A stretch of 58,946 bases of DNA, the filler included, from Dugesia japonica (Eukaryota): assembly GCA_001938525.1 (NCBI GenBank). It is 5 parts of 5 records of this genome, joined end to end, with 100 filler letters (N's around TTAATTAATTAA, not from the genome) between each part and the next. Parts side by side here need not be neighbours in the genome. Positions count along the whole stretch, not along the records: positions 1 to 19,233 come from MQRL01611244.1; 4 more parts are not named here. One strand, written 5' to 3'. Positions within the stretch are counted from its first letter, which is position 1; the number at the start of each line of letters is the position of its first letter. A program made the position numbers and the translations under genes. Under the pieces are notes generated by a model. That model was not told where the DNA came from. It was given only the letters and a program-made list of their open reading frames with translations, and searched no databases. This document shows, in pieces, positions 861-31,772 of the stretch.

Positions 861-2279
861 TTGACTATGAGAATTCCATCAACTTAAAAGATTACCAGTG
901 GGAAGTTGCTATGACCAAATTTGTATTCAATTATTGTCCACAGACTATACAAAAAGTTTCGAAAATTGAATTTAAAATAAGAGAGGTGAAGGAAAATGAG
1001 AATCGATTTCAATTAAGTATTGTAGATGTTATGTTGCAACTTAATAATACCGTCCCTCTCAATAAATATAATTTGCATTTATTGTCCGAAGAAAAGAAAG
1101 TAATATTGAAAACATATTGTCAAGTAGAAATGGAGTTTAATTCAATATCCGATGCTAAAACTTTTGGATTTAATTTAATCAATACCAAAAATAAAAGGCC
1201 GTTATTTTCAGATAATATTCTTCAACCGTTTTATTACATGTTTTCCATGACATATTCTATGGGTAGTTTATCAAAATCTGCCCAAACAACTAATGAGTAC
1301 TTATAGCGCAGGCGTCATCATCTGATGTAGGTTGATGGAGATTGTAAATTCGATCCAAAACGAAAAATCTCAACAACCTACAAGCAATTCCTATTGATGC
1401 ATTGTTTTATGTTAATGATGATAAAAAAGGAAAGAAAATCCATACTCTCAACCATTTTTCCTGAGTCTTCGAATTAGTAATTATCCACACCATACATTAC
1501 ATAACATGTAGTATTTTGTCGTAGTTTTCGATCAAATCCATTTATTCAACTAACTTATTTGATTTTTTATTAATATAACCGCTAGATGAATTTGGAATCC
1601 TCATCGGATTATCAATATCAGAACTCGAATTCATAACAAGATTTATTAAAACAAAATCTATACATATAAATTTGTTTTTTCCAAACAAATTTAAAATTTT
1701 ATATTCAAAACAGAAAACATCAAATATCAGTATTTGCAAAACATTTTAAAATTTATCTGTCAAATTTTAAAAATACCTTTTATATATTTTATTTTATTTT
1801 AATTTATCCACAATTTATTAAATTTCAAATTTAAAAATACATTCTATATATTTTATCTTACTTGCTTATTTAAATATTTAACAAACTGATTTCAATAAAT
1901 TCTGCCTCAAAATACAAAAAATTGAATCTGCTTTTAAAATCTTCCTTTCAATAACTATTGTTAACTAATTCCCTGCGCAATACGCTTTGAAATTTCGTGC
2001 TCGTTGGGAACAAAATTTCGATTTTACTGCACTAAATGCGAAATATCACTTCCTTCTGCATAAAAGGTGCTCGTATGCACTATGTATCGAATGTAAAAGG
2101 TTGTGTAGAGCAGGAAAAAATTTAAAAACACATCGTGAATTAACACGCTTAGAGCGCGTATATACGTTTTTAGCAGCGAAAGGAATTTCAGAATGTCAAA
2201 AAAATCCATCAATCAGTATAAAATAAATAATTAAAATAATCAATAATTTTTAATTAAAAGTATCGAAAAAATCGAGATA

Positions 2280-2800
2280 CCAAAACAATCTAAAAGATAT
2301 TTTCAATCATTACTGTATAATCACAATTTTTGGACAAATTTTGTTCCAGAAATTGAACAGATCTCTATTTATTCAGGAAATCGGTTATTTACTTGCCAAA
2401 TTCGTATTTCTCTCGAAAGTTATGTAAAGAATCTATTTTTAAACTTGTAAGAATACATTATTGAAATTTGTTTTCCGACATTTCATATGATGCGTTTGAA
2501 TCAATTTTTGAATTGAAACAATTTTAGATACGATTAAACTATTGCTCTCAAACTTTACAAATGCGTTGTAAACAATTTTATCTCTTATTTTGTCTGTTGC
2601 ATCGTGCTTCAAGTACTTTTCTAAAATAATGTCGTTAGTGTTTCAGTGTTTGTAAAATTTCACGCCATACTTAAGAAGACCATTCAATCTTTAGTGGTAA
2701 TTTTTTCAAATGTTCCTTACATCAATTGTTTTTATCAGACCTATATCAAGTGGTCGCAGTAATACAGTCGCATTTTAGGTTCAACAAACTGACATTTAAA
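2280..2800 (-). mobile_element. pogo/Tigger DDE transposase remnant
   Basis: The minus strand reads TVLLRPLDIGLIKT, similar to the TSxLQPLDxGII motif of DDE_1 transposases. Heavily decayed, so boundaries are approximate. Confidence 0.45.
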
Positions 2801-3461
2801 GTTTATTTGAGTCCTTATTTAAGTCAAGTAAATAATTTTCTCTTAAGCCTACAAAGCACTTGTAAATAAATCTCAGCCATAAATATTTACTGCTGCAATA
2901 TTCAGTTTCAATTATTTTAAATAGAAATTATTAATACATCTCAGATTTTTAGATTTTTCAATAAATAGTAGAAAGTTTTGTCAACAAAACAAAATTGCAA
3001 TTCTTTCCTTTTCTATTTTACGCCTATATAACAAGGGTTAGCAACCTTTTGCTAACAATTTGTCGATACATGGTTCGAAATTATTTGACGTATCAACAAT
3101 ATGCATATTTTTAAACCACTCAAATCAATTTACCTGTTATATCGTTTATATTGCAGAGGTCAACAACCTTCAAACATAATCAAATTATTAATATTTAAAA
3201 TTTAAAACATAGAACTTGTCATTGATAATCGCTTGGCGTGCTGTGAGTTGCCAACCTCTGTTCTGGAGTTATCTTATTCAATAAAACGTTTTCGCGGGAA
3301 TTTTTGTGCTTAAATTCAATTTTTTAGTAAATGTATTTTTCATCTTTTTGCTTATCAATTGTTTATATGTTTGATAAATCTATAGATCTTGCTTCCCGAA
3401 AATAATTCATTTGAAATAAAACCTTCAATCAAAATCTTGTTTTTTTTTGGTATTTGATAAC

Positions 3462-3496
3462 AATTTGATATTTCGACTTTGCCTTCTTTAGGAATT
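3462..3496 (-). ncRNA. Degenerate minimal hammerhead ribozyme
   Basis: Minus strand aattc-CTAAAGA-a-ggc aaa gtc-GAAA-ta-TC-aaatt. The core G is mutated (CTGA>CTAA), so it is probably inactive. Confidence 0.45.
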
Positions 3497-3659
3497 GACT
3501 TTTTTTGCGAGTAAAAAAATAAACTAAATTTAAAATAAATTTAAAATCTAAATTATGTCTGTCTTTAAATCATTCAAACCAACCATTTGAAGCTTTCAAA
3601 TTAAGAAGATTAAGTTTAGAAGCAATCATATAATCAATTGATTTTATGACATGCAATTA

Positions 3660-4198
3660 ATTATAATATTTCTCTAGCGGACCCTTTGGAATAATTCAAA
3701 TATTGTTCTATTCATTTCTCTATGCTATTAAAATTTTATTACAATTTTCCACACTTAGCAATATAAAAACTAAAAATCGTGAACGATTAACAAATGTAGA
3801 AGAAGAAAAGCGTGTGGCTATTTCACACATAAGACCTGAAATTGAAGAAATTTGCAAATCATCAATCTCCATAATCCCATTAAACTCATTAAAGTCATTT
3901 ACGTATATAAATTTAATTTAAAAAACCCTTACTTTTATGTATTATGTAACAACGTGATTTTCAATAAATTCGATAAAAAAAGAAAAGTTAATTGTTCTTT
4001 ATTTCAGAATTTAATTCTAAGTTTCTACATTAAAAGTATTAAAATTGCACTTCAAATGTTATCTTTTTAAAAGCTTTCCGCTGAGAGAAGAGATACACCC
4101 TTCCAAACCATTCACTATAATGCTAAGCATATTGTGTTCCGCCAAAATCTTTGAAACTATAAATTGTTCCAGTTCTACTAAAAGATTAAGAACCACTG
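3660..4198 (+). mobile_element. hAT (Buster/Charlie-type) transposon 3' fragment
   Basis: FSTLSNIKTKNRERLTNVEEEKRVAISHIRPEIEEICK resembles the Buster-type hATC C-terminus. The fragment ends in TTAAGAACCACTG, the reverse complement of a CAGTGGTTCTTAA-type TIR. Confidence 0.7.
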
Positions 4199-5041
4199 CT
4201 ATAGAGTTTGTGATAGTAGAGTATTATTGGTGGAATGAATAAATAATCATGTTGTTGCATTTGTATAAACTGATACAAAATTCAGTTTTTCCATCGAAAA
4301 AATTCTCGAAATGGTGTCTTTGTCTCTGTTCTGTGCCTTTTCTAAGTTTCTTACTGAACACATCTTTATTATAAATTTCCTTTGATATTAAAATTTCTCA
4401 TGTATGCAATTTTATGTATTACATGTATTAAATACGCCGCGATAAGCATGCCGAATAAACACTTAAGTAAACCGAAGAAATCCCATTACCGGGCACCGGT
4501 TAGCAGAACTTCAATTGTTATGCTATGATCAATAAGTGAAGGTATTTCCCAACGCGACCTAACCAACAATCAAGTGAATCAGGTAATTTGAATTAAGAAT
4601 CTGTTAGCTGATTTTGAGATACCCTTTGTCTATTTAATGATGAAAGTTCTTCAAAGGCAGATACTTCTAAGAGAGGTTGAAAGAACCTATACGAATTGCC
4701 TCAAATACGCAAGAACCCAGATGGGAAGTGGAGGACTCTTTCTTCCGCTGTAAATGCATAAGGTTGTCTCTAAACAAACTCAAGCCAGGCGCAGTTGACA
4801 CTACTCACGTAATAAGTACTAACGAGTGCTGCTTAACTTTAAAATGCCACTATAAAGAAATAATTATTATTTTATAATTTTAGGCAATAGAATATGATCA
4901 AATTCCATTTTAAAATGTAATCAGTTCTATTTCAATTATAATTATCTTACTAAGCATGGGTTATAGTAGAGAAATAAATAATTACTAAAAATATTAATTG
5001 TGATTTGGAAAATAAATTACCAATTAAAGATTTATTTAACA

Positions 5042-5054
5042 TGGTGGCAGCGGT
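5042..5054 (+). promoter_or_regulatory. Primer binding site (tRNA-Leu type)
   Basis: TGGTGGCAGCGGT directly follows the LTR-terminal CA and is complementary to the 3' end (ACCGCTGCCA-CCA) of eukaryotic tRNA-Leu(AAG/TAG). Confidence 0.75.
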
Positions 5055-5490
5055 AAATAACGATTCTATTAGAGAGAGGTTATTGCCGAATGTGTTCTGC
5101 AGGGGATATGATATTGAAAAATTCATCAAGCAATGTGAACTTTATTTTGAAGCTAAAAACATCATCCTCTTGTTTGTGATATGAAGAATATGTAGAGTTT
5201 GAAAATAATTGAAGGTTTTCAGGCTCGTTTATGTATGGCATTTGAGAAAAAAAAGATGTTATCAAAGATTTCCAAAATTTGATTAACTACATGCGTGAAA
5301 TTGAAGAAATTCAAGTTTATTTTAAAAATGTAAAAGATTTAGTAAAAAGATTATTTACAAATAAAGACTTTACTGATGAAACATGGTAACAAAGATGATA
5401 GTATATTGTTCAGATAACAAAAAAGTTGAAGAAGAAGTGACTTTGCGGAAACGAGAGAATATAAAGAAATTGAAGAAACAATGACCTTAG

Positions 5491-5895
5491 TATTAGGTTT
5501 TCACATATGAAATATCCGATTTTAGAACTCGTTTTTTAAACTAATATATTTTTATTTAATATTTAACATTTAGAACTTATTTATATATTATTTTGAAGGT
5601 GAAANNNNNNNNNNNNNNNNNNNNNNNNNNNNNNNNNNNNNNNNNNNNNNNNNNNNNNNNNNNNNNNNNNNNNNNNNNNNNNTAAAAAATACGGAAATGC
5701 GAACATTATTTTTATATGAATGGAAATTAAAGCATAACCCAACAGAAGCTGCCCGAATTTGCATTTGGAGAGGGTTCAGCTAATAAAAGAACTCTTCGGA
5801 GATGGTTCGACAACTTTCAAAAGGGTGATTTAACCCGGGTCAATATGGAAAGGGGGCGCCCCAGGGTTGTCATTAGCAACGACAATGTAAAACGT
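5491..5895 (+). mobile_element. mariner 5' fragment nested in Gypsy gag
   Basis: TA+TTAGGTTTTCACATATGAAA TIR-like start, then EMRTLFLYEWKLKHNPTEAARI..FGEGSANKRTLRRWFDNFQKGDF..RGRP (Mos1-type HTH domains and GRP motif). Confidence 0.8.
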
Positions 5896-8800
5896 GAATA
5901 TAATAGATCTAATAAAGAAAAACAGAGATCAAGTTTATGTAGTTAGAAATTACACAAGAGTTACAAGTCGAAATAATCAGAAACCTGTAATTCATACAGT
6001 TAATATACATGTGGATCAAAGAAAAGAAAATCAAAATATCGAATGTAGGTTATGTCGTAAGATCGGTCATACTAAAGCTAATTGTCCGACAAAAAAGTGG
6101 TAGAGTGCAGAAGTTGTCATAAAACAAGACATATAAGTCGAGATTGTCCAAACAAAAAACCAACAAAATGTTTTGGTTGTGAAAAGGTTGGCCATATTAG
6201 AAGGTNNNNNNNNNNNNNNNNNNNNNNNNNNNNNNNNNNNNNNNGACATAGAGCAGAAGAGTGCTACACAAATTTGAAAATGAAAAGAACAAGTGGAAAC
6301 ATTTATGGATATTACGATGGATATGAGGAAATATATGAAAGTAATTCCGAAAGGCAGTATCCAAAAGGCAGGGTTCCACCAGTAGAGTAGTTGGTTGGAG
6401 CCATCCATTGTTGAATCAAGTGAGTCGAAAAGTTGGATGATATCGAAAAAGTTACAGAAAAAGTAAACAGGTTCTTACAGAGCGAAATTTGGGTATGATA
6501 GAAAAGTAAAATGGGTTAAAACAATTGAAGCAGAAAAGAAAATAAATATGTCGTTCTTTAAATTGCAAGGCAGACAAAGTGTTACGATATCAATTCAAAG
6601 AAAAAAAGTTGAATGCTTATTAGATATAGAGGCTAGAATTAACGTTATGAGTTTGAGTTGTTTTAATAAATTACGAGAAGTACATTTAAAAATGAGTGAT
6701 GAAAGATTTCATTGTGCAAATAATAGTACACAAGAAATTGTTGGAAAAGTTAGAATTGGAGGGATAAATGATGAAGTTTGCAAAGAGATTACTTTCTTAA
6801 TTGCTGAAAGAGTGACACCAGATCTGATAGAAGAATAGATATGCAGAGAATTTTTAGATACCAGTTTATGCAGAAGGTTGATAGCAAAACGAATAAAAAA
6901 GTCAAAAATTACATTTGCAATATTGAAACGAAATTTGGGAGACAAATTAAAAAGGAACAGCGATTGACAAGAGCCTTAAACACTTTAAAGATTAAAGACG
7001 ATCAACGGATTTTAAAAAAATTGGAAGTAAAGAAGATGCTTTTATGGCAGATAAATGGGATGTAGNACGCACACATCTAACAAGACACAAAATAATCACA
7101 AGAGGTGAACCAATCAATGTAAAACCGTACAGGCAACTAATGACTTTAGAATCTAAAATTGAAGAAGCTTTCCAAAACCTTTTCGAGAATAATATTATCT
7201 CCAATGTATTTGTTGCGAAGAACTTGTGGAGCCAAATATAGAAGATAGTTTGTAGTTGTGAAATTCGTCAAAAGACTAAAAACCGCTACTAACGAGAAGA
7301 CAAAGAGATTAGAAGCTATAAATTTGTTTGAAGTCATATTCACAGATATATGTGGGCTAATGGAAGAAACAAGTATACAAAAAAATACATTCTTGGAATA
7401 ATCGACCAGTATAGTAAATATTTGTTTCTTTTACCATTGCCTAGACAAGACAAGGAAACAATACGAAAAGCTATTTTTGAAAAGTGGATATTGAGATTTG
7501 GATGTCCAAGAGAGATAAGAGTAGATTGTGAAAAAGCTTTTGAATCCAGAGTTATGGGAGAGTTTACAATGAAGCTAGATATTAAACTTTGCTTTTCGAG
7601 TCATTATCATCATAATGCAAACGGACAAATTGAAAGACAATTCAAGATTTGATTAATGCAACACTTCAGGAAAGAATGACAAAAAATTAGGCAGATCTTT
7701 TACCGGAAATAGAATTTACACTAAACGCAACAAAGTAGAAGGCGGCTGGGAACAGCCTAGCTGAGATCTTATTTGGAAAAAAAATTAGCAGAGAAAAATG
7801 GTATGAATCAGACGTTTCAGATAGAACTAAAGAAAACACTTCGAACGTGATTACTAAAAGAGTATTCAAAGTGGGTGATTTTGTACTCATCAAGATAAAA
7901 ACAAGAAATAAAAGTCAACACAGATTTGAAGGACCTTATAGAATAACTGAGAAGATTCATGAAAGTTGGTTTGCAGTACAAGGAGAAAATGGACAGCGAT
8001 TGGAAAGAAATATGGAAAAACTCAGAAATTAGAGTATTAAAAAAAATAATTAATGTTTAATAATTTTAGCCAATAGAATATGATCAAATTCCATTTTAAA
8101 ATGTAATCAGTTCTATTTCAATTATAATTATCTTACTATGCATTTGTTGTAGTAGAGAAATAAATAAAGTCTAAAAATAATAATTGTGATTTGGAAAAGG
8201 AATTACCAATAGAAGATTTACCTAACAGCCACTATTTAAGTTTCAAATTTTAAACAGTGATAATTTTTAAAAAGGTGTTTTTATGATTTCCATTATAGTA
8301 AAGACTATTAAAATTTTGTTAAATGTTTCTCAAAATGTGAGGTTATAACTTCCACTTCTTTCTATAAATTCTCATTTCTTTGTACAAATTTTATTGAAAC
8401 TTATGTTTTCTGAGTTAATTTTCTTCAGTATATTGTTTGATGTTTATTATTTTAAAGCTCTTATTGCGATAAAATTTTAATTGTTTACCTTAACATCAAA
8501 TAAACATCCGCCTAAACCAAAACTGACCCAATTAAAATTTATACAATTAATTATCAATAAATTTAATACATAAATAAAATAATTTTTTTATAATATTTAA
8601 AATTTTTTTAAAAATTTATAACCAAATTAAGAGAGCAGCACTTTTTATACTAAACATTTACTTTTTATTAGTATTAAAAAGTGAATAACTGATTACAAAT
8701 CAATTTGATAGGTTGTTTCTAGTTCTTAGTTTTTTCAAAGCTTATTTGTTATGTTTTATGATTTCATGTGAATTTTTTTCCAGCAATTAACAATTTAGTA

Positions 8801-9226
8801 TTGACTGTGTATATGTTTCAATTTATTATTTTTTAAAAACTAATTCTCATTATTTTTAATTGTTTATTTTAATTTCAAATTTAACAGTTGTTAACATATG
8901 GTCATGTATATTTTTTTATTTGATGTAAAATTCGCAGAATTGAAAGATTGAATCGAAATTTTTATTTAAACTTGTAAATAATTTTTACAAAAATATTGCA
9001 CCTTTAAAAATATAATTCTTTCATATTTAAATAATTTTTAAATTTCGTTCGAAATGAAAATTAATTATAAAAAACAAATAATTTTGCACAATGCCAAATT
9101 TGTGTAAAATAAAATTACAAAAATATATAAAAATCATGCATTAACATTTCTATCATTTAATTACTTATTTTAATAATACTTTCTTAATTCTAGAAATTGA
9201 TATTAGAATAAGAAAGTAATAATTTA

Positions 9227-9405
9227 TGTTTGGGTTACACCTGAGTTAATTGAAGATAGTCGTGGCTGGGGAAAAACAGCCCTCAGGGGAACCCTTTCAA
9301 GAATTTAACCTGACGCCCCTGGGTCAGGTGTTCAGTATATGGTGGTTGACCTCTCTCTTAATGGGAGGTGCGCGCCCATAGGCCTTTTATTTGGGTTCAC
9401 TATTT
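9227..9405 (+). ncRNA. Conserved multi-stem terminal structure of the cargo element (copy 1)
   Basis: Stems GGGTT..CCTGAG/CTCAGG..AACCC, CCTGAC/GTCAGG, and TATGG/CCATA enclosing ACCTC/GAGGT. Conserved with compensatory changes in copy 2. Strand inferred from G-U pairs only. Confidence 0.5.
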
Positions 9406-9478
9406 TCCGTAAAGTTACACATAAAATTCAAACCAAAGATACTCGAAAACATTTATTAGTATAATATTTATAACTCGT

Positions 9479-9822
9479 CTAGGACGCCAGGGTCATCATC
9501 TCGATCATCAACAGTTCGAGAGGTATTCTTTCCCGGAGAAGTAAAATATCGTTAACCAGTTTATTTTCTCGGTCATGGCTGAACCAGATAATTTCCGCAA
9601 AGGACTCAACCTGTTTCTTCCAGGCTCGCTCCTGCAAGTGAGAGGTTTCGGCTTCCTTTAAAAGCGACACACTTTTTCTTATAACGAATCACCTTACTGT
9701 TGGCGGTGGCCANCTTTGCCTNCCATCGACGTTTTGCCAGTCGATATAGGTCTCAAGTGAGCTCTATGTCCTCACTGGTGTCTCTCAATTTTTTCGTGGG
9801 AGCGAATTCAAAGAGGAATGCA
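9479..9822 (-). pseudogene. Orphan ORF-C, copy 1 (helical/coiled-coil-like, disrupted)
   Basis: APTKKLRDTSE..T*DLYRLAKRRW..KVIRYKKK..EAETSHLQER..HDRENKLVNDI..PLE aligns with copy 2 (17307-17665). One stop and one frameshift. AG acceptor at 9823-9824; AATAAA at 9452-9457. Confidence 0.6.
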
Positions 9823-9992
9823 CTAAACGTTTATAATTATAATCAATAGAATACACTATGCTTAGAAAATACATCCTCATATTAATGTGGAATAGAAGTT
9901 TCCGTCAGACAATGCACATTGAAATGAAGAAAAATAACATAAGAGAGTCACTTATTTATTTTTTAAATACACAAACAACAAAAAAATTTTTA

Positions 9993-10340
9993 TTATGGAT
10001 TCAAAGTAATACCAACATTAGGAGCGGTGTTCTCGACATCGCTAACACAGAACGGCTCTCTCACACCCCAGAGTAAATTGGAGATAAAAGCTTGTACCAC
10101 TGAGGGAGGAGCGGGAGGTTGGTAATTAAATGCCGTAGTATGTGTGCGTACGGGTCCGTTCCATTTTTGGAAACGTACCCTCTCGCCGAAGTTCTGAATG
10201 CGAGCTACCATCGCCTCCACGGGGGGTAAATTAGACCTATCCACTAAAATACCAGCATCTCTATTATGCAGATTATAGTGGCGTCGGAAAATCACCCTGC
10301 GAGTTCTTCTATCTATTACTTGCTCCCAGATAGATTCCAT
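9993..10340 (-). CDS. Orphan ORF-B, copy 1 (115 aa, Arg-rich N-terminus), intact
   Basis: 46/54 N-terminal residues are identical to 17912-18190, with many synonymous differences. Acceptor-like TTAG lies 2 nt before the ATG, and the stop overlaps AATAAA. Confidence 0.8.
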   Translation of the reverse strand: MESIWEQVIDRRTRRVIFRRHYNLHNRDAGILVDRSNLPPVEAMVARIQNFGERVRFQKWNGPVRTHTTAFNYQPPAPPSVVQAFISNLLWGVREPFCVSDVENTAPNVGITLNP

Positions 10341-10496
10341 TTCTAAGTAAAGAGTGATAATAATTAGTACTAACGAAATTCATAGAAATCAGCATTATGA
10401 TATCAAAAAAAAATTTATATAAGTAGTTATTCTAATATAAAAAACGTCGAAAAGGTTTTATATATAATTTATTTTAATGATAGTAATGAACAATGA

Positions 10497-10679
10497 TCAG
10501 CTCTCAACTAAGTCTACTCTTCCCGGTAAGGGGAACATCTCGGTAAAACAACAAAGGTCTGTCTCATCAGGATGCTCGATTCTCCCTTTAGTTAATAGAT
10601 GAGCTATTGGTTGTCTTAATCGGGGAGTTTGGCGTTGTTGTTTTATCCATCGAAGGGTACGACGCAACTCTGCTGGCAT
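10497..10679 (-). CDS. Orphan ORF-A, copy 1 (60 aa), intact
   Basis: Same length as 18357-18539 and 27/60 identical without gaps (RLRQxIxHxL, ExPDETDLxCFxExFPLP). TTAG lies 3 nt before the ATG; AATAAA at 10468-10473. Confidence 0.75.
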   Translation of the reverse strand: MPAELRRTLRWIKQQRQTPRLRQPIAHLLTKGRIEHPDETDLCCFTEMFPLPGRVDLVES

Positions 10680-12945
10680 GAACTAAGAAATTAAACCATT
10701 AATCGCAGTTATTAACCCATGATTTAATCCCCTACAAAGAATAGCTGCTACTGTCTGTTATTATTAATATNNNNNNNNNNNNNNNNNNNNNNNNNNNNNN
10801 NNNNNNNNNNNNNNNNNNNNNNNNCATAATAACCTTATTAGGAAAAATAATAATAGTTATCACACCAATAACAATGGTTTTAATAGTAATAATAATATAT
10901 TTGATTATAATAATGATAATCCTAAACCGTACAACGAGTAATTATCAAACTTTTACTAAAATGATGGTGATGATAATCTTCAGACTGATGCTAATATTAG
11001 ACTAAAATTATACTAATAAATGCGGTAATAATACCTTTCACTAATCTGATGAGAAAAGTAGTCCAGTAATGCTAAGGCAATAATAACAGGTACTCCTTTT
11101 ATTAATAACAATCACTATAATGATAGTAGTAATACTAAACTTAATAATTCTAATAATAATAATACTAATAATAATAGTAATAATAACATTAATGATAATA
11201 ACAATAATTATATTGGTATCATCTTTTGCTAAAGTTATCAAAATTGTGAGGGATGATGAATTTTCGTCTTTTCCCTTGTAACAAAAAATCATACTTTTTT
11301 AGTGGAGTAAATTTTAATAAATTAGACAAAATTAATTTTTTAAATGATCGCGGAGTGGAGTTGCCTAGCACCACAAAAAACAATGTAGTGGCTAGTATTA
11401 CACACAAGAATTGAATGATAGTAGGTGTGTATGCAAAAGATGAATTATTTTTCTATCTAATCGATTGATTTCAATCGGATTGCTATGGCGAAATTATCCA
11501 CTACGGCAACTCAAGTCGCTATAATGAGTGTCTGATTGTTTATATCTATAGGGAATTTGGGGGAATGACTCAGGCTCATAGTCGGATTAAATTTACTAAG
11601 TCCTTCAATTTTGTAGATCCTGCGATCGAGAATATGATACATAAATAAATTGATTTGACTAAAAATTAAAAACCTCATTTCATTGATAATAAAATATTTT
11701 CATATTAAAATAATAATTAGAGTTAAAATTCCATATCATTAAGCTTTAATTTTGTATTAATTCACTATAACATAACAGAACACTTACTATAAAATTTTCG
11801 ATAAGATTTCTGCAACGGTTGCTACCAATAAAAGGNNNAATGAACAATTTTTTGGTAATTGATAACGAAAGTCCCAACTTCTGCTGTTTTATTAAAATTG
11901 AAATCAGCTCAAGATTTAATGAATAGAATTACTTTGATGCGCGATAACTGATCACGTTGATTTCCAATTGTTTTTATCGTAGTAAAATTCTGCCGAGAGT
12001 TTTCCTTTTTGAGAAATAACGAATATGCGGTTTTGACGTTTGGATTGTTTATTAATTTTAAGAGAGATTTAGTAGTGTTTTTTGTGTGTGTTTCTGCTAA
12101 TTTCATGATTCCTTATATATGACTTTTCCTTGCACCCCAACTTCTTTCATATTCGTTGGTTATCTTTAACTAGAATTTTCGACTTCCTATTGGTTCTAGT
12201 GCCAATTTTCTAAAGAATATTTGGAGTTTTAGCGTTCCAATTGGCGGTTATTTTTAAAACCTCATGTGACCGATTGTGCTTTGTCTTATTTTTATTTTCA
12301 GGTTCCTTATTGGCTCAATCTTGAAATCCCTGCAGCAACCTTCTGGATGGTGGTAAGATTTTCTTCTTAACAAATTCTAATGCTTCTTACTATTTTCTTT
12401 CTGGATTTTTTTACCCGAACTCTCTCTGATTTTCCTGAGCAAAGTTATTCGTGTAAAACGGATTTTTGANNNNNNNNNNNNNNNNNNNNNNNNNNNNNNN
12501 NNNNNNNNNNNTGGTAATTAATTATTTTCCCATAATGATTTTCTTGACTTTTTTTATTAATTTAATAATTCTTTTTAATTCTCAATATTGATGTATGCTA
12601 GTTTAATTACGCCCGGTTCTTCGTATCCATCTCCAATTTTATTTTATTCTTTTCTAATGGTTATTTTCATTATATCCTACCCAGATCTTAATTGCTTCTC
12701 CTTTTGCATTTCATTATTGGTAAATATAATGGCCCTACTGTTCTTCTTTGCTGATTTGGGTTTTTGGCCTTATTTTCCTTTTTTAACGGGTGTTTCACCC
12801 CAACATTTATAAAAAAAATAATTCCGCAAGAACACTATTTGAAGAAGTGAGAGCTTTTAAAATATTTTAATTGATCGAAAACTTGATTATTAAAAATTTT
12901 TATAATTATTTGTGAAGTAATTTTAATTAAATATAGTAATAATAT

Positions 12946-14060
12946 TGTTAGATTCCAAAAAGAGATAAAATCTTACTCCCAAGATTTATCTGATTTAACA
13001 ACTTTATCAACATTAACTGTAGTAATAAAAATATATGGAAAAAGAAATAAGCATAAAAAATATATTTAAATCACAAAATGATACTGTAACAAATATATAT
13101 AGCTTTTTTGAAATCAGTTATGCAATCATGTCTGAGCAATAAAATCATGCACACATTCAAACAGCCAACTACGCATTTACCTATTATCACATACATATGT
13201 CAATTTGAAAGGTAAATATGAAAATATTATATTATTCTTAGTCATATCTCACATTCCCCTCTTTTAAAGTGTTTTAACCATTCAATATTTCTTATTATTT
13301 TACCATTAATATGTTTAATTTAAAACTCCTATCACGTATTTTCTCTATAATTATTGCTGGTCCTTCATATCTGTTTTCATTTTTATGTAGACTTTCTATT
13401 TTAGTTAAAAATTCGTCACCAATATTAAATTTTTTACGTGTATTATTCTTTTCTAAGTTTTTGAAATTTTCATAGTTATTTAAATTGTTTATTATTTTTT
13501 ACGCTTTAGATTTCTTTCATTTACATTGTTTTTATCATTCCTAACTATCCATTCTTTGTGTATATTTTCCCCAAAAACTAATTCAGATTGAGATACATTC
13601 GTTGTTCTCTGAATTGTGGTGTTCAACATAAATTCTATTTCTGATAAAATAATGGCCCAGTCCTGCTTTTTCTTATCCTGTAAACTAATATGATGTCTTT
13701 ATCTTATTGTCTTTTAATTATTCAACTACTACTATGATGATATGGACTAGAGTATTGGATTTCACAATTAAATTCCTTGGCTAATTGTTGGAACAGATTT
13801 GATTCAAATGATTTTCCATGATCTGTATGTATTATTCTCGGTGCACCATATTTCAAAATCCAACTATTTTTAATATTTTCATCATGATGTGCAACTGCAT
13901 TGAGAGATATAAATCCAATGAATTTATCAATTATAGCTAAAATGTATTGTTTTTCATATAAAGTTTTCTTTAAACTACCACAAAAATCAATATGAATGAT
14001 TTCAAAGATGTCATCAGCTGGATTTATTTGTTTTTATTTAAAAAATCTTCCTAATGATGC
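12946..14060 (-). mobile_element. Ty3/Gypsy 3' fragment: integrase, polypurine tract and 3' LTR
   Basis: Minus strand IHIDFCG..YILAIIDKF..WILKYGAPRIIHTDHGKSFES..SSPYHH..RYEGPAII. PPT AAAAGAGGGGAA (13254-13265) is followed by TGTGAG (LTR start 13253). The LTR probably ends ..TAACA at 12946. Confidence 0.8.
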
Positions 14061-15104
14061 AAGTTGAGTGAATTGTTTACTAATTTTTTAATGATCATAA
14101 AAAGATGAAAATTTTTTATTTGGATCATGAATTAAGAATATGTTGAAATTGGTTGAAATAATTTCAAAATTTGATTGGAAAATGTCAAAATGTGCTGAAA
14201 TAATGTAGAAACACCTGTAATAAGAAAAATAATTTGATTGTAGAGATTACTTGAGCTAGAAAGCTCTTATTCAAGTTAGGAAAGGTAAAAGGTATTATTA
14301 TATTATACTGATGTTTGCTAAGAAACTCTTATTATAGGCCTACGTATTTCAAACCGAGAAAATGGACCAGATTTATATTTTAAAAGACTGAAATTAATAA
14401 TTACTGATAGGCTAAGTAAAACTGTAGTCAGTAAATTTTTTATTAAAATATAAGTTGGCTACAAGTCAAATATCTTTTAGTCACTGCTATTTTACATGGC
14501 AGTTATTTTACATTAATTTCCAAAAAAATACGGCCAGTTTTTATTTAAAAATATTTATTATTCATAAATTAAAATAAAAATAATATGATAACAATTTTAA
14601 ATAATTAACGGGAATTTAAAAAAGTATTATTTTTCCATGATTTTTTGATTGGTTAAATAATAATAAAAACCTTTTAAATTAAGTATTTATTTTTACTTTA
14701 AATTAAATAACATCAAAAATAATACACCCAGTCATTGAATTAAATAAATTAATATTTGAACTTAATAATTATAATAATTAAATTAATTTGATTGTGATAA
14801 AATGACGATCTATTTCATGAGAAATTTAATGCGTTAATGTCAAGTGGAATGAAACTGTGAAATTTACTATTATATTACACAAAATTGTGGATTTTGGACA
14901 AATCGTAAAATGCATTAAAACGGTAATTTCACTATTTTTCTTTAATATTTATATATTAAATTTAAATAAATAATTCAATTACTTTTTTTATTAATTTAAA
15001 AATTCTGTTGTTAGCGGTTTCTCTTGTAATTAAGAATATAATATATATCACAATGATAATAAGAATAGTAATAATGCATGTTAATGTCTTTATTATTCAT
15101 ATTT

Positions 15105-15660
15105 TTAATGGTGTTCCACCTTACCCACAGGTATTTGTCCGGTTGTCATTTAACTGGTTCTCTCGGTAGCGTCAGTGAGTCCTCTTGAAGGAGTGCAGGC
15201 GTCTACTTATTTACTTCGGATTCATTGTACTGACTGGAAGGATATATCAAAAAGCCATTTACCATTACCTGTGTGGCCTGTTTTAGATGAGTTTGTGACA
15301 GATTTTTATACGTACATCAGTAACTGTGAATAGTTAAAGGAATAACCGTGGAATGGTTTTGTCAATAACTTTTCCGTGGTTAGCCATAAATCGAGAATCT
15401 CTGTTGATATTATTTTCCTGGGAATATTTTATTGGAAGAATGCTAATATCTACACCCGAGTTGACCAGGAATTCATACTTGAGTTTCTATGTTAAAACTA
15501 GAATTGCAATTATTGATTTAATGGATTGAGATCCGTTGACTTTTCCTACTTTTCAAACCCTATTAATTTCTTTCCTAAAGCTTCTTTCACGTTTTAACTT
15601 TGATAATCGAATTTTCCATAATTCATTTTATTGAAAATTTCTTGCTTAGCATTTTTTCTA
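15105..15660 (-). mobile_element. Retroelement fragment with degenerate retropepsin
   Basis: Minus strand YEFLVNSGVDISILPIKIF resembles the FLVDSGADISILP active-site motif of Gypsy proteases. Flanks are decayed. Confidence 0.5.
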
Positions 15661-16602
15661 CCAATTCTGAATTTTTTTGTAATCAAATGAACTTAAAAAT
15701 TATTAATTTATTTCTTTCTGAATAATTTATTCATTAAATAATTAAAGTAATATAAAAGATAAAATTAATAAATCGAAAGTAATGAAATAAATTTCAAAAT
15801 ATTAACACGTTAAAATATTTAAAAATTTTAGCAAAAATGAGTTAAATATAAAANAATAAAATTAATGAAGTTAAAATAAGATTTTTAAAAAATTTTTTAT
15901 TTAAAAAATACTTTAAGTTAAAGTTGAGTCTCAAATTGTTTAGCTTATTTTATCTTTCACTATTTAGTAAATATTTCAATGATTTATAAACTTTTCAATT
16001 AAACGGTGAGCGTCATTGACTCACTTAACAGTGTGCATTCATTAAAATCAGTGAATTTAAACAAAATATATTTAAATTTTCAACATATTTTATTTGATGA
16101 TTTTCTGAATGTAATACTACAAAAATAGAATGTCACATTGTTTAAATGTTATTTTTGTTTTTACCAACAAATGTACGCGCTTTAAATTTCCTAAATTATC
16201 AAGTGATTCAATCTAGTTCATTTTAGATTACATTTTTTTTTAATAAATTAAAATATCAATTGTCAGTTATCTGCGATCAAAAAATCAATTATAATTTAAT
16301 TATTATTTTTTAGGGAGTAATATAGTGATTAGTATTAAATTAATTTTTGTATGTTACGTAAACATAAATTACGGTGGTAAATAAAATAAAAATACATACA
16401 AAATAAAGTATGTTATCAAAAATTAAAGTAATATTTTGGCGGTAGATCAGATCGCGATAAATAGGGGTTTCGCTGTACTGTCATTTTAAAAAGTCATTTT
16501 TCAATATTAAAGGAATTTTTAAAAAATAATGTACAAGAAATACATTTTTATAATGGAGATTATCAATTTTTACAAAAGAAACCTCTTTTTAATGTATATT
16601 AT

Positions 16603-16783
16603 TGTTGGGGTTCTATCTGAGTTTGGTCACAAATAACGTGACTGGGGAAAAAACAGCCCTCAGGAGACCCCTTCAAGAATTTAACCTAACGTCCGTAAGT
16701 TAGGCATTCAGTATGTGGTGGTTGACCTCTCGCTTAATGGGAGGTACGCGCCCATATACCTTTAAATTTGGGTTCACTATTTA
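16603..16783 (+). ncRNA. Conserved multi-stem terminal structure of the cargo element (copy 2)
   Basis: GGGG.TCT.TCTGAG/CTCAGG.AGA.CCCC, CCTAAC/GTTAGG (16685-16690/16699-16704), and GTATGTGG/CCATATAC enclosing ACCTC/GAGGT. Confidence 0.5.
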
Positions 16784-16841
16784 CCCTATTGTCATTACTA
16801 TATTAGATACTTTAACACGAAAAACTTTATTTCATATGAAA

Positions 16842-17224
16842 CTAGAGAAGACCTAATACACCAGGGTCTAGCCACTGGCCTGGATTCGTCTTTAAAAAGT
16901 TAAAAGAATCTATGTCATCCTCATCATTCCATTGTATCCACGTGGGATTACCCATCTGGCGGGAAAGGTCGGATATATACTGTTTAAGAAACTCAATCTT
17001 CCTCTGAAGCAATAATTTATTCTCATCTTCCAAAGTCTTGGTCTGTACCGCCAGGTCGTGCTGTTTTTTCACGATCTGATCGAGTTTCTTAATCAGACGA
17101 TCTCGCTGGTCCAGAAGCTTAATTAGTGCTCTATCGGTTTTCCGTTTTAACTGACGCTCTAAAAGCAGATGGCGCATTATGCGATGGCACCTTCGCAAGC
17201 TGCTCGGAAAATTAATGCGGGGTA
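16842..17224 (-). CDS. Orphan ORF-D (coiled-coil protein, ~110-127 aa), copy 2 only
   Basis: Open frame from an AG acceptor at 17225-17226 to the stop at 16842. Heptad-like Leu/Ile spacing (LIKLLDQRDRLIKKLDQIVKKQHDLAVQTKTLEDENKLLLQRKIEFLKQYISDL). AATAAA at 16826-16831. Confidence 0.6.
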
Positions 17225-17306
17225 CTAAAAGAAATACCTNNNNNNNNNNNNNNNNNNNNNNNNNNNNNNNNAAAAAAATTTAGTTATGGCCAAACATTTA
17301 TTGGTA

Positions 17307-17665
17307 TCAGGAACGTGGGGTCTGGCTACTATTGTCAACTATTAGTGGTTCAAGAGGCATGGCAGCCTTTAGGTTGTGAATGTCTTGTACCAATTTATTT
17401 TCACAGTCATGGTAGGACCGGATCATCTCTGTTAACGATTCGAGTTGAGCCTTACAGACTCTTTCTTGCTTATGGGACGCCTCGGCTTCTGACTTGAAGG
17501 TCATTTACTTCCACTTATAACGCCTAACCTTGGCATAAGCGTTTGCAACCTCAGCTTCCCAGCTTAACTTCGCTAACTTATACAGGTCCCAAGTTTCTAG
17601 GTTTCGTCACTGGAAGCTCTCACTTTCTTGGTTGGGGCCTGAACTCGGTTTAAAGATGATTGCAC
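17307..17665 (-). pseudogene. Orphan ORF-C, copy 2 (disrupted)
   Basis: APTKKVRASSD..ETWDLYKLAKLSWEAEVANAYAKVRRYKWK*MTFKSEAEASHKQER..HDCENKLVQDI..PLE. One frameshift, one stop, and the acceptor AG appears mutated to TG. Confidence 0.6.
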
Positions 17666-17843
17666 AAAAAGAAGTGAAAATTAATCAAATACTATGAGCT
17701 AAAATATCGATTTCTCACGACCGATGCTGTCGGGATACATTTACAAATCATCCCTAATAAAAAATGATTTTTACACAAAAAAAATATGATGTAATCAATC
17801 TGGAGACAACGAGATATTTTATTACAACTAAACAGATAAGTCC

Positions 17844-18190
17844 CTAATGTGAAGTCGATAAATCAGTCATGGGTGCGGCATTCTCCGAATCCTCGCTACC
17901 CGAGGGTTCTCTTACTCTCCAAAGCAGATTATTGATAAATGCCTGTATGGCGGGGGCTGGGCTGAAGGTTTATATTGAAATGTCGTAGCAAGGGCTCGAT
18001 CGGGACCCGTCCAACTTTGATGATTACGACGCTCCCCAAAATCCTGTATCCGGGCTACGATGGCTTCCACTGGGGGTAGATTTGACCTATCGGCCAAGAT
18101 GCCTGCGTCACGATTGTGGGGATGAAGATGACGTCTGAAGATCACTCGACGAGTTCGTCTGTCGATTACCCGCTTCCATATAGACTCCAT
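17844..18190 (-). CDS. Orphan ORF-B, copy 2 (one frameshift near 17950)
   Basis: Track ORF 17912-18190. Changing frame near the G run at ~17952-17956 restores IQAFINNLLWRVREPSGSEDSENAAP..SH*, matching copy 1 VQAFISNLLWGVREPFCVSDVENTAP. Confidence 0.75.
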
Positions 18191-18356
18191 TCTGCAATAG
18201 AAATTGATTTAAAAGCGCAAAGTATAGATAGATATTTATAAAATTTTAAATAAAGGANNNNNNNNNNNNNNNNNNNNNNNNNNNNNNNNNNNNNNNNNNN
18301 NNNNNNNAACAAGGCTATATTTTATTTCAATTATCAATGTTTTATCAAAGCACATG

Positions 18357-18539
18357 TTACTTCCGTTCGGTATGAGTTTTTTCTGGCAAGGGGAACAGCT
18401 CGACGAAACATTGTAGATCGGTTTCGTCGGGGTTCTCCACTAACTCCGGAAATAAGGAGTGGCCGATAAGCTGTCGGAGTCGCGTGCGTTTCCGCGGCTT
18501 CAAAATGATACTCAGGGCCTTCGTTAAATCACTTGGCAT
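18357..18539 (-). CDS. Orphan ORF-A, copy 2 (60 aa), intact
   Basis: Homologue of 10497-10679. TTAG lies 3 nt before the ATG; AATAAA at 18321-18326. Confidence 0.75.
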   Translation of the reverse strand: MPSDLTKALSIILKPRKRTRLRQLIGHSLFPELVENPDETDLQCFVELFPLPEKTHTERK

Positions 18540-19233
18540 ATTCTAAATAATAAGAAATTAACTCTAGGTCGACTCAACATAATTATGGGCCTATCGATTT
18601 AAAGCTAAGTTTAGTGAGGTAATTCAACGGACGGGTCACAATTTCTGAGAGGTAACCTCATTTAATACAAAAATTTAGCCCAGCGCAGGATTCAATGCCT
18701 GGCCTAGCAAAGTTGTGGACAGTGATAATCCCGTTATTAATTATCAATGACCTGTAGGGGTAGTGGTGCTAATCGTAATTCTCTCAACAGTAATGTCCCT
18801 TGATGAGAATTCACAAAGTTAACAATAACACCTAAATTAATCGGAACAATGATAAAGTTAGTAATAACATTAAATGTGAGTAGGATAGGGTTATTGATGA
18901 CTAATAAGTATAATAGTAATTATAATAATAAAAGTCGTCATAATAAGATAAGGTGATACTAATGAACCAAATCATTAACTTTAATGTGGAAATTGATAAT
19001 CCCCTGGGTCATATTTAGTAGAAATTGAGTCAGTATCGATGGCTTGGCCAACGTGGGGTGATAATCCTACTAAGTTAACCGAATATAAGGACCCCAATGT
19101 CCAGGATGCCTATGTGGTTGATAACTATTAATCGTGATGACAGACTTAGGATTCTTCCTTGTTTGTTAAGCCATAATAGAATTTCAAAGTTCGACATAAG
19201 GACATCACATTTTTATAGCAACACCCTAAAAAA

Positions 19234-19333
19234 NNNNNNNNNNNNNNNNNNNNNNNNNNNNNNNNNNNNNNNNNNNNTTAATTAATTAANNNNNNNNNNN
19301 NNNNNNNNNNNNNNNNNNNNNNNNNNNNNNNNN
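19234..19333. other. Artificial contig-joining spacer
   Basis: 44 N + TTAATTAATTAA + 44 N = 100 bp. The motif has stops in all six frames and is identical at four places. Confidence 0.95.
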
Positions 19334-20499
19334 TATAATCTTAAGTTAAATTGTTTTCAAATTTTTAAAAAAATATTCAAAGCTGAAATCTCGAAAAATT
19401 TGCCTATGTAAGTAATTTGTCTTACAGTACTATTATTAGTAAAATCTTTTTTTAACTTTAGAAAAAAAGAAGAATTTGACTTGATTTGACAAATTCTTGA
19501 CCTTGTGTTTCGTTTCTTGTCACTACTTAGTTGTCTTAAGATTTAAGAAAATTGAGCTTTCTAGATGAACAATATATCAAGACTTTTTTAAAACTTATTA
19601 GACATTACAACAAAACAATATTTTACGTTTTCATCGACTTTAGCTAAACGTTTTTCATCAAAAAAATCATTATTTCATTGGAGAAATTAGTTCCTTTTCC
19701 ATGTTCCTTTTTGGCAATATACCATTTTTTATGAGTCTGATTTTAATGAACTCTTTGATATGATATGGATTTTCAATGAATTGCAATTTTAAAAGTAAGA
19801 ATTGAAATTTGTTTGATTATCATGTCATTAGATGCACTTAGATTTTTCAATTAATACTTTCAATNNNNNNNNNNNNNNNNNNNNNNNNNNNNNNNNNNNN
19901 NNNNNNNNNNNNNNACTTATTAGACATTACAACAAAACAATATTTTACGTTTTCATCGACTTTAGCTAAACGTTTTTCATCAAAAAAACTATTATTTCAT
20001 TGGAGAAATTAGTTCCTTTTCCATGTTACTTTTTGGCAATATACCATTTTTTATGAGTCTGATTTTAATGAACTTTTTGATATGATATGGATTTTCAATG
20101 AATTGCAATTTCAAAAGTAAGAATTGAAATTTGTTTGATTATCATGTCATTAGATGCACTTAGATTTTTCAATTANNNNNNNNNNNNNNNNNNNNNNNTT
20201 TATACCTTAGCTTTGGAGGTTCTCTGATTTCTTTTGTTTGATTGTTTAGTTCAGAAAATATTTAACGTTGATTTTAATTCTACTTACAAATAATTCCAAT
20301 AAAAGATTATTTATGTTTTCGTTTGGAAATTTATTTATTTTATATTAGTTTTCTTTTTTGCATTTTTCATTGTTTATATTATTTTTACTATGGTATCATT
20401 ATTATTTCATTTTACTTTTCATATTAATAGGCTGGAAATAACATAAGATTATTTTTATATTTTATTTTCTTGTTTTCATATTTTGCTTTTACTTTTCTG

Positions 20500-21494
20500 A
20501 CTTTTTTGGCTTTTAATTTGAAAAATTATTTACTTTTAAGTAATAGTAATTTTCAAAAATTCCCAACAATGAAAACACATAAATTAACTGTAAATCGTTT
20601 TTTCTCATGCTCTGTAGTTTTAATTCGAACTTCGGTGGCCCCTTTAGTTTCAACAGTATACCCTAATAGCATATCAAATTGAATAGATACTTCATCAAAA
20701 TTTCCGATTTGATTATCGGATAAATCCTTCTTCAACTCAGTGATGGTGCTTCTAAACTTGACTACCAGAGATTCCCAATTTTTAAATAATTGTTACTTGG
20801 TGGTGGGCCGTCGAACACCAATATTCATGCGATTCATTAAATTGTCAGCCCATTGAGAGCTCGCTGCAAATTTTTCAATCCTCATCTCTGTGACATTTAT
20901 TTGTGCCTGTAATTGAATTTTTAAAACTGATACTTAAAGTTCTCGTTCACGTTGCATTGACGTCCCTTTCGTGTAATCGTGTTCCCAATTTCAGATATCT
21001 AGCATTACCACCACGCAAAGCTCTACGGTTTGGATGCATTGCTTTGATTACAAGCTCTTTTGCGATCCACCGTCGAATCACAGTTTCGTTAATATCATAT
21101 CGACGCGCAACTTCATGAATGTTTCCTAATTGACGAACTAGATCAATAATTTCTTTTATCTTTGCTAAACTGAAGGATCTTCTCTGTTTCTTTTGTAATA
21201 ATTTATTATCGTTGACCATCTTTAATCAAGGATTAAAAAATCACACAAATTATTGCAGAGAATATAAACAACAGAATAAAAATTATTATTATGAATATTT
21301 CAATTGGTTTTTAATGAAAGGTTAATGATTGTAAAATAATAATAAATTTTTTAAATCTTTTTGTAACATTTCTCTACAGTGAAAATTGATAAAAATGAGT
21401 TTTTGCTAATTTTATTCCGACCAAATACAGTGCATCTCATATGGAAATCGTGCAGCTAATACGTGCTGCAGATTATACTCGGGATTTTACTGTA
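20500..21494 (-). mobile_element. pogo-family DNA transposon (Brinker-type DBD + CENP-B HTH + start of DDE), 3'-truncated
   Basis: TA-CAGTAAAATCCCGAGTATAA TIR at 21494. RRSFSLAKIKEII..HEVARRYDINETVIRRW; FAASSQW...MNR...VRRPTT; IGNFDEVSIQFDM..TVETKGATEVRIKTTEHEKKRFTVNL. Confidence 0.85.
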
Positions 21495-21524: not shown

Positions 21525-21995
21525 AGTGTAAGATAGGTTTTAAAAGCAGATTTAAAATTTTTGTATTTTGAAACGGAATTTATTAAATCAGATTTGTTAA
21601 ATATTTAAATTAAATCATTGAAATAATTTATTTTTGCACAGAAAGCGAACGAGAAATTTATAATTTGTGTTAAATATAAAATTTATAATTTGTGTTAAAT
21701 TTAAATTTTTAATTTACAATGTATATTAAAAAATTTATAATTTCTGATTTTTAACAAAATATATTTTTTATTGTATTTTTAAATTTTAAGTTATTAAAAT
21801 TTAAAATAAACTTACTAAATGGAATATTTTACAAAACGCTGATATTTGATATTTTTCGTTTCGAAATTGAAATTTTTAAATTTCTTTAAAAAAACAAATT
21901 TATATTCATAGTTTTGTTTTGTGAATAAATCTTTTATGGAAACGAGTTGTGAAATTAATTATCCGATGAGTACTTCAAACTCATCTAACAACCAG
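21525..21995 (+). repeat. Dispersed AT-rich repeat (also 39691-40151 on +, ~38860-39100 on -)
   Basis: Shared blocks AGTGTAAGATAG.TTTTAAAAGCA.ATTT, CTGATATTTGATATTTT and TAGTTTTGTTTTGTGAATAAATCTTTTATGGAAA. Confidence 0.7.
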
Positions 21996-22626
21996 ATTCA
22001 ATTTTTTGTCGTCTCAGTTGAAAGTTCATCTTATAATATTTTTCTTAATTACAATTAAATTGAAAATAATTGAAATTCAGTGGTTAAAAAATATAAATAA
22101 TGAATATTAACTTTTTAATTGGAATTTTGAAATCTATTTGGCTAATTTACAATTGTTAATTATTGTAAAATGATAAAATAATTTGCAAAAATGTGTCAAT
22201 TTAAATTTTATATTAAATTTATTTAATTTAAATGAATTAGTTTTTTTAATTTAATATTTAAAATGAACAATTTTATAATTTATATATTAGTTGAGTTCAA
22301 ATTAAATAATTTTATATGGAATATAAATATTTGATATATTTAGTGAATTATATTTTAAAATTTTACGGTAATAAATTTTAACAATAATAATTAATTAAAT
22401 TTGTTAGTGAAAACGCTCTTTGGTGTTTGAATATATAAATCATAATCATAAAGTTTTTTCAAATAGAAAATATAAATAAATTAAAACTATTATTTTCACA
22501 AATTAAACTTTTTTTTAATTTTTTATTTAAAATTTTTCATTTTCAATTTTTTGTTGATTATTTGTAGAGAAAAAACTTTAACAAATTATCTACTCTCCTA
22601 ATAAAATTAACTTTATTATTTTCTAG

Positions 22627-31481: not shown

Positions 31482-31672
31482 ATACTTAAACTTTATTCAG
31501 AAAATTATAATCTCCTTGATTTTTTCTTAAATATATTATAAAATATTTTTAACTATGTTTCATACAAAATATTACACTTAAGTGTGACTTAAAGACTTTC
31601 AATTTAATTATGAATTTCAAATTTTTCTGACCTCAATGAATCTTAATACACAACGTTTTAAAACTTTTGCTT

Positions 31673-31772
31673 NNNNNNNNNNNNNNNNNNNNNNNNNNNN
31701 NNNNNNNNNNNNNNNNTTAATTAATTAANNNNNNNNNNNNNNNNNNNNNNNNNNNNNNNNNNNNNNNNNNNN
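31673..31772. other. Artificial contig-joining spacer
   Basis: 44 N + TTAATTAATTAA + 44 N. Confidence 0.95.

Follow-up and report, generated by a model that had tools for sequence, protein, structure and literature searches.

The 58,946-nucleotide stretch analyzed here (hereafter the window) was joined from five records of the Dugesia japonica assembly GCA_001938525.1. It is animal DNA of ~27% GC, with remnants of Gypsy and pogo elements, a Ras-family exon, and a multi-exon immunoglobulin (Ig) gene. On its minus strand lie two copies of a repeated element, copy 1 at 9227–12805 and the diverged copy 2 at 16603–19233, which carry tandem series of small open reading frames (ORFs A to D) in cassettes of acceptor-like AG, ORF, and AATAAA poly(A) signal. 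This cassette grammar is real and selected, and the element holding it is high-copy and resembles a long terminal repeat (LTR); from these observations we infer a mechanism by which each ORF would become a separate mRNA.

Cassettes of acceptor, ORF, and poly(A) signal

The cassettes of the two copies are as follows:

10468..10683, minus strand: cassette A of copy 1; acceptor G 10683, ORF 10679–10497 (60 aa), AATAAA 10473
9989..10343, minus strand: cassette B of copy 1; acceptor G 10343, CTAAT branch-like motif, ORF 10340–9993 (115 aa), AATAAA 9994
9452..9823, minus strand: cassette C of copy 1; AG 9823, coding similarity from 2 nt later without an ATG, AATAAA 9457; lesions are two frameshifts, one close to the 5' end and the other near 9660, and a stop at 9755
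18321..18543, minus strand: cassette A of copy 2; acceptor G 18543, ORF 18539–18357 (60 aa), AATAAA 18326
17818..18192, minus strand: cassette B of copy 2; acceptor G 18192, ORF from 18190, frameshift near 17947, AATAAA 17823
17297..17665, minus strand: cassette C of copy 2; T-rich tract without an AG, broken ORF, AATAAA 17302
16826..17225, minus strand: cassette D, in copy 2 only; acceptor G 17225, first ATG 17177, 111-aa coiled-coil-like ORF to 16842, AATAAA 16831

The AG, ATG, and AATAAA coordinates of a first-pass annotation of this DNA were all found in place, its AATAAA positions being the low ends of the hexamers. That annotation had described a T-rich tract and an AG 1–3 nt before the ATG of ORFs A and B in both copies, and all four starts conform: the acceptor-to-ATG distances at G 10683, 10343, 18543, and 18192 are 3, 2, 3, and 1 nt, with 8–10 pyrimidines in the 12 nt before the YAG. 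The AGs at which ORF-C of copy 1 and ORF-D had been said to begin exist at 9823 and 17225, but the tract at 9823 is weak, placing it outside the sites with at least 8/12 pyrimidines; the tract at 17225 is partly N-masked. As a correction, ORF-C does not open with an ATG, neither of its copies is intact, and copy 2 lacks an AG homologous to 9823. Its first ATG lies 97 nt on and out of frame, and no in-frame ATG follows the AG. At the start of ORF-C, all four differences in five codons fall at third positions when the frame is read with one base supplied from upstream. Both copies also keep an additional AATAAA within ORF-C, at 9565 and 17399 on the minus strand, where the codons are conserved.

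Distances from stop to AATAAA were 23, −2, and 21 nt for A, B, and C of copy 1 and 30, 88, 4, and 10 nt for A, B, C, and D of copy 2. The earlier placement of a hexamer within 0–31 nt of every stop thus applies as written to six of the seven ORFs, the exception being the frameshifted ORF-B of copy 2; allowing for that frameshift it applies to all seven, with the AATAAA ~20 nt after the stop that ends the frame corresponding to copy 1. Spacers between a stop and an acceptor measure 82–179 nt. As background, a YAG with at least 7/12 pyrimidines 1–3 nt before an ATG occurs at 17/919 plus-strand and 26/924 minus-strand ATGs of the window (2–3%), and AATAAA occurs in the same span after 722/4207 and 726/4142 stop triplets (17.5%). 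With homologous positions counted once, p was ~8e-4 for the two acceptors and ~9e-4 for the four hexamers. The cassette motifs are real and stand well above background.

Comparison between the copies revealed proportions of synonymous differences (pS) of 0.79–0.96 and of nonsynonymous differences (pN) of 0.17–0.39 in all five segments of ORFs A, B, and C (240 codons; Fisher p 2e-5 to 9e-17). The test covers ORFs A–C; ORF-D is present in copy 2 only. One opposite-strand frame of ORF-B showed a weaker shadow of this signal and contains stops. ORFs A–C are under strong purifying selection, and their synonymous sites are saturated between the copies, so that the cassette motifs have outlasted that saturation.

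A profile search with ORF-B among 1.84 billion proteins found a sole relative, P0007, an unnamed 94-aa protein on a 512-nt European Nucleotide Archive (ENA) metagenome contig, 37% identical over 89 aa (E 3.5e-10). Direct homologue searches with ORF-B found none, and its profile matched nothing in metagenome contigs, viral contigs, or Atlas; homologue searches with ORF-D likewise found none, and ORF-A had no relatives in viral contigs. For the cassette ORFs, Pfam gave weak coiled-coil matches only, PHROGs matched 0/7, and PDB showed no match below E 0.04. The structure model of ORF-B reached a predicted local distance difference test score (pLDDT) of 53 and a predicted template modeling score (pTM) of 0.20. 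The cassette proteins probably act as accessory regulators, either of the element or of its host cell, and they make up three or four small-protein families that are new and strongly selected; one of these has a distant metagenome relative.

Boundaries, layout, and abundance of the element

The container of the cassette array, a bounded TGTT..AACA element with a target duplication, is an addition to the first-pass annotation. Its features and those of copy 2 are as follows:

9227..12805, minus strand: copy 1 element, 3,579 bp, TGTT..AACA ends, 9-bp imperfect terminal inverted repeat; likely a solo LTR
9223..9226, plus strand: left target-site duplication, TTTA, 4 bp
12806..12809, plus strand: right target-site duplication, TTTA, 4 bp; chance match 0.8–1.9%
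12112..12313, minus strand: putative U3-like promoter; CCAAT at 12313, 12244, and 12193, two more on the plus strand; TATATAAG at 12119
11933..12090, minus strand: predicted non-coding leader exon, ATG-free; R-like AATAAA at 12053
11932 and 11787, minus strand: donor-like sites, each preceded by A
9227..9411, minus strand: terminal block of copy 1, predicted U5 end; 185 bp conserved, 82% identical to copy 2
16603..19233, minus strand: copy 2, diverged, 5'-incomplete in the window
16603..16788, minus strand: terminal block of copy 2, very high copy; summed DNA depth ~17,700 at 16692, 94–113 contigs
18627..18944, no strand assigned: second very-high-copy block, upstream of cassette A of copy 2; summed DNA depth 16,092

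The terminal inverted repeat is matched at 8/9 positions in copy 1 and at 9/9 when the end of copy 2 is used; copy 2 has the same 3' end as copy 1. The word TGTT[GT]GGG has four sites on both strands of the 59-kb window, three of which are the 3' ends of the two copies and position 12805, and one contig from DNA reads departs from the window precisely at 12805. Copy 2 lacks its far end, and no U3-like part, second end, or target duplication was found for it within the window.

On the minus strand from 12805, copy 1 shows a purine-rich segment, a CCAAT cluster, TATATAAG at 12119, AATAAA at 12053 (66 nt past the TATA box), and an ATG-free stretch, followed by the donor-like sites at 11932 and 11787, a low-copy stretch, cassettes A–C, and the conserved end block. 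The CCAAT cluster, five in 200 nt vs 0.39 expected, is the densest in the window (p=5.5e-5; ~0.02 corrected for some 290 windows). Because of this order of motifs, copy 1 reads as U3-R-U5 with a very long U5. An antisense LTR was rejected as a reading, since only on the minus strand does the CCAAT cluster stand upstream of the TATA. No polypurine tract (PPT) before and no primer binding site (PBS) after copy 1 was found, as expected of a solo LTR. Taken in this orientation, the 3.6-kb repeated mobile element is likely the solo LTR of a Ty3/Gypsy-type animal retrotransposon. At 11340–11620 on the minus strand, a further acceptor-like AG at 11620 precedes sequence of higher GC content whose frames are short and broken; this may be one more cassette in decay.

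Of 24 sequencing runs listed, 12 from five studies contain part of the window; no RNA run was listed among them, which counts neither for nor against expression. In DNA run X1, single loci reached 11–12x, whereas summed depth, which is a rough guide and not a copy number, was ~2,100 in ORF-B, 4,400 in ORF-D, and 1,700–5,200 over 11949–12902, with 43–113 contigs at sampled positions of the element. The high depth drops near 11930 in copy 1 (317-nt bins). The element clearly belongs to a large, high-copy family. Its end block and upstream block contain no tRNA, no Rfam family, and no significant fold (z −1.3), and on these grounds short interspersed element (SINE) and ribozyme ideas were dropped. 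The end-block pattern had 0 matches in metagenome and viral contigs; 120 matching prokaryotic loci were judged chance, as 0/120 extend by blastn. The block at 18627–18944 contains repeated ATTATCA words (GATA-like on the other strand), and the corresponding place in copy 1 is occupied by AT-rich repeats.

Proposed expression and competing explanations

The account we favor, at somewhat less than even confidence, is that the U3 promoter of a solo LTR transcribes a short non-coding leader that is spliced in cis to one of several alternative last exons. Transcription would start near 12090, and a leader donor (11932 or 11787) would be joined to a single acceptor out of three or four. Behind each acceptor lies a small ORF closed by a poly(A) signal of its own, so that one promoter would yield a separate mRNA per ORF. 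The 2 vs 1 nt AG-to-ATG offset of ORF-B, reported earlier, was confirmed, and such differing offsets mean that the upstream exon must be non-coding. Both donor candidates follow an A and the frame of ORF-C begins with TG right after its AG; splicing would therefore complete an ATG, and the start codon of ORF-C would be made by splicing. Unspliced genomic RNA would read through the hexamers, each presumably used only when the preceding acceptor is used. Three host introns identified by eye use T-rich TAG acceptors and degenerate donors similar to the cassette sites, which supports the favored account. Of the two routes proposed in the first-pass annotation, the shared non-coding leader has gained a promoter, an ATG-free leader, and donor-like sites in a bounded element, whereas spliced-leader trans-splicing has been weakened. 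One mRNA per ORF, also proposed there, is a reasonable expectation because the grammar is kept across diverged copies around selected ORFs, but no junction, leader, or poly(A) reads were listed at a coverage near zero.

RNA reads were mapped on 9723–19233 at 80% likeness, with the end of ORF-C of copy 1 outside, using two poly(A) runs from two studies, X14 (1,888 million letters) and X17 (1,749 million letters), a quarter of each run being read. An integrase remnant nearby reached up to ~33x in X14, which indicates that mapping works, with no host gene as control. No molecule-end pile-ups and no poly(A) reads appeared in the listed rows. A loose end with an A run at 9986 in X17 was rejected, since a minus-strand tail would have the opposite polarity and the site coincides with an A tract. 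Run X8, guessed to be RNA, was not counted as expression because it tracks the DNA depth profile (Spearman 0.81 over 30 bins). Both copies are decayed, and they and their near relatives appear silent in these samples; this silence speaks neither for nor against the splicing model. PIWI represses LTR elements in planarians (PMC8532177), which would explain the silence if the host is a planarian.

Several observations weigh against the favored account. A 2.8-kb U5 is of unusual length, and several sense poly(A) signals within it would burden a genomic RNA. No gag-pol, PBS, PPT, or partner LTR was seen with copy 1 within the window, and the target-site duplication is known from one locus only, the neighboring Gypsy apparently having 5 bp. 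The TATA of the promoter reads as TATA on either strand, donor-like words are common in the window, and, as copy 2 has no U3-like part or second end, conservation of promoter and donor has no second copy. In X14 and X17, the nine ORF bins held 0–4.8 read equivalents each, none 99% alike, and the leader bin reached 0.15x or less; no raw RNA reads were found in the 15 of 121 joints listed, and the 24 of 2,587 loose ends listed included none at an acceptor and none leader-like (low power).

Alternatively, a primary transcript could be cleaved at each AATAAA, with the downstream piece receiving a spliced leader at the AG. Such an operon requires no donor, and the cassette spacers fit those of flatworms, where same-strand genes lie at most 300 nt apart with acceptors before their starts: in extracts of PMC12582326, S. 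mansoni operon spacers are at most 300 nt (median 99 nt), and in those of PMC8629364, flatworm spacers peak near 100 nt, both with a poly(A) signal and then an acceptor close to the next start. ORF-A would be in frame with an AUG-ending leader in both copies, and the host appears to be planarian-like. However, the AUG-ending flatworm leader described in PMC12582326 would be in frame at only two of six acceptors and would leave ORF-C without a start, a poor fit to the cassette frames, and the operons known from both extracts hold conserved host genes. With donor-like sites present upstream and nothing leader-like among the loose ends listed, we consider the operon unlikely. Similarly improbable is that the same cis-spliced cassettes sit in a complete non-autonomous element, either a Ginger-like DNA transposon or a virus-derived cargo element. 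As extracts of PMC2836005 describe them, Ginger elements share the TGTNR ends and 4-bp duplications, and the target of copy 1 matches five of six letters of the Ginger2 preference RTATAY; moreover, no internal retroelement domains linked to the cassette element were seen. Ginger inverted repeats nonetheless measure 40–270 bp in that source, against 9 bp here, and the CCAAT-TATA-AATAAA order is LTR-like. No integrase-like transposase was found by Pfam in the cassette ORFs, although a non-autonomous copy would be without one anyway.

It is quite improbable that, after the manner of large DNA viruses or Polintons, every ORF forms a separate mini-gene driven by a promoter in the AT-rich spacer, with an AG that is incidental or belongs to an initiator. 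TATA-like words do lie 50–130 nt before ORF-B in both copies, separate poly(A) signals would be expected, and ORF-C begins GTG in both copies; but no such words precede A or C in both copies, they occur about once per kb in the window (114, both strands), and the acceptors carry tracts and branch-like motifs. Least probable, and by our estimate very improbable, is that real ORFs are accompanied by a chance AG/AATAAA pattern in AT-rich DNA. Only two copies, sharing ancestry, are available, the tract of ORF-C is weak in copy 1 and its AG is missing from copy 2, gapped spacer identity (44–51%) is not far from ORF identity (51–65%), and X14 and X17 lend no RNA support; against this stand the low backgrounds of both motifs and their persistence past synonymous saturation.

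Solo LTRs are usually treated as non-coding promoters. Under the favored cis-splicing account, several selected genes with their own acceptors and poly(A) signals would make them protein-coding units, and recombination would leave behind solo LTRs that each retain the full accessory-gene cassette, dispersed in hundreds of copies. We tentatively suggest, as a possibility short of probable, that an animal LTR can be a multi-gene expression unit with a promoter, a leader exon, an array of alternative last exons for three or four orphan proteins, and one splice-made start codon. The question it poses is how a genomic RNA passes several sense poly(A) signals at its 5' end.

Related systems and neighboring features

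In complex retroviruses (mouse mammary tumor virus sag, foamy virus bel/tas, walleye dermal sarcoma virus orfA/B), splicing joins a leader donor to any of several acceptors that precede small ORFs, some of which reach into the LTR. Retroviral accessory genes share the 3' LTR poly(A) site and lie in or before U3, whereas the cassette ORFs each have their own hexamer and lie downstream of the promoter.

Extra ORFs of LTR elements are already known, mostly single and internal. Extracts of PMC7264820 (plant aORFs) and PMC5408684 (bdelloid ORF3) describe Ty3/Gypsy extra ORFs as family-specific, of unknown origin, with coding-like conservation, and internal to the element, as a rule a single ORF placed between pol and the 3' LTR; the PMC5408684 extract adds that they are typically made from spliced messages. 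The cassette element differs in having three or four tandem ORFs inside a duplication-bounded LTR-like unit, each with an acceptor and AATAAA. Like a Ty3/Gypsy LTR, it has TG...CA ends and a short inverted repeat, and its TTTA duplication falls within the 4–6 bp expected. Burro, a giant planarian Gypsy with decayed copies in Dugesia japonica (PMC6431247, in extract), is similar by description in being a very large, high-copy LTR element with accessory ORFs in a similar AT-rich type of host. The cassette element has no Burro domain, and the same extract does not mention ORFs inside Burro LTRs. A full-text literature search, with subscription papers and repeat databases, where the family may be entered, mostly outside it, did not turn up tandem acceptor-ORF-poly(A) cassettes described inside an LTR.

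Elsewhere in the window, a decayed Gypsy element at 4851–8227 (plus strand) has two 188-bp LTRs that are 90% identical; its 5' LTR is followed by a PBS-like site, remnants of protease and integrase persist, and its duplication appears to be 5 bp long. A second Gypsy remnant at 12900–14174 (minus strand) has an integrase core, and a purine tract and LTR start at 13253; its relatives are transcribed, up to ~33x in X14. An Rfam mir-310 match at 13200–13272 (plus strand), with 31.5 of 48 bits and thus under the gathering score, overlaps this LTR start and is probably chance. A transposase remnant with an N-terminal helix-turn-helix, pogo-like by eye, occupies 20580–21219 (minus strand). Host genes comprise one exon of a Ras-family (Rab-like) GTPase gene at 22568–22852 (plus strand) and a multi-exon Ig-domain gene at 41900–47100 (minus strand) with LDLa-like cysteine repeats by eye and introns of 48–55 nt, the length of the three host introns above. 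A partly masked palindromic simple-repeat element occurs four times (19228–19352, 31667–31791, 40146–40270, and 50101–50210), one copy adjoining copy 2 on its 5' side, and an AT-rich dispersed repeat family resembling miniature inverted-repeat transposable elements is present in both orientations at 1583–1950, 21525–21991, 25719–25868, and 39692–40151.
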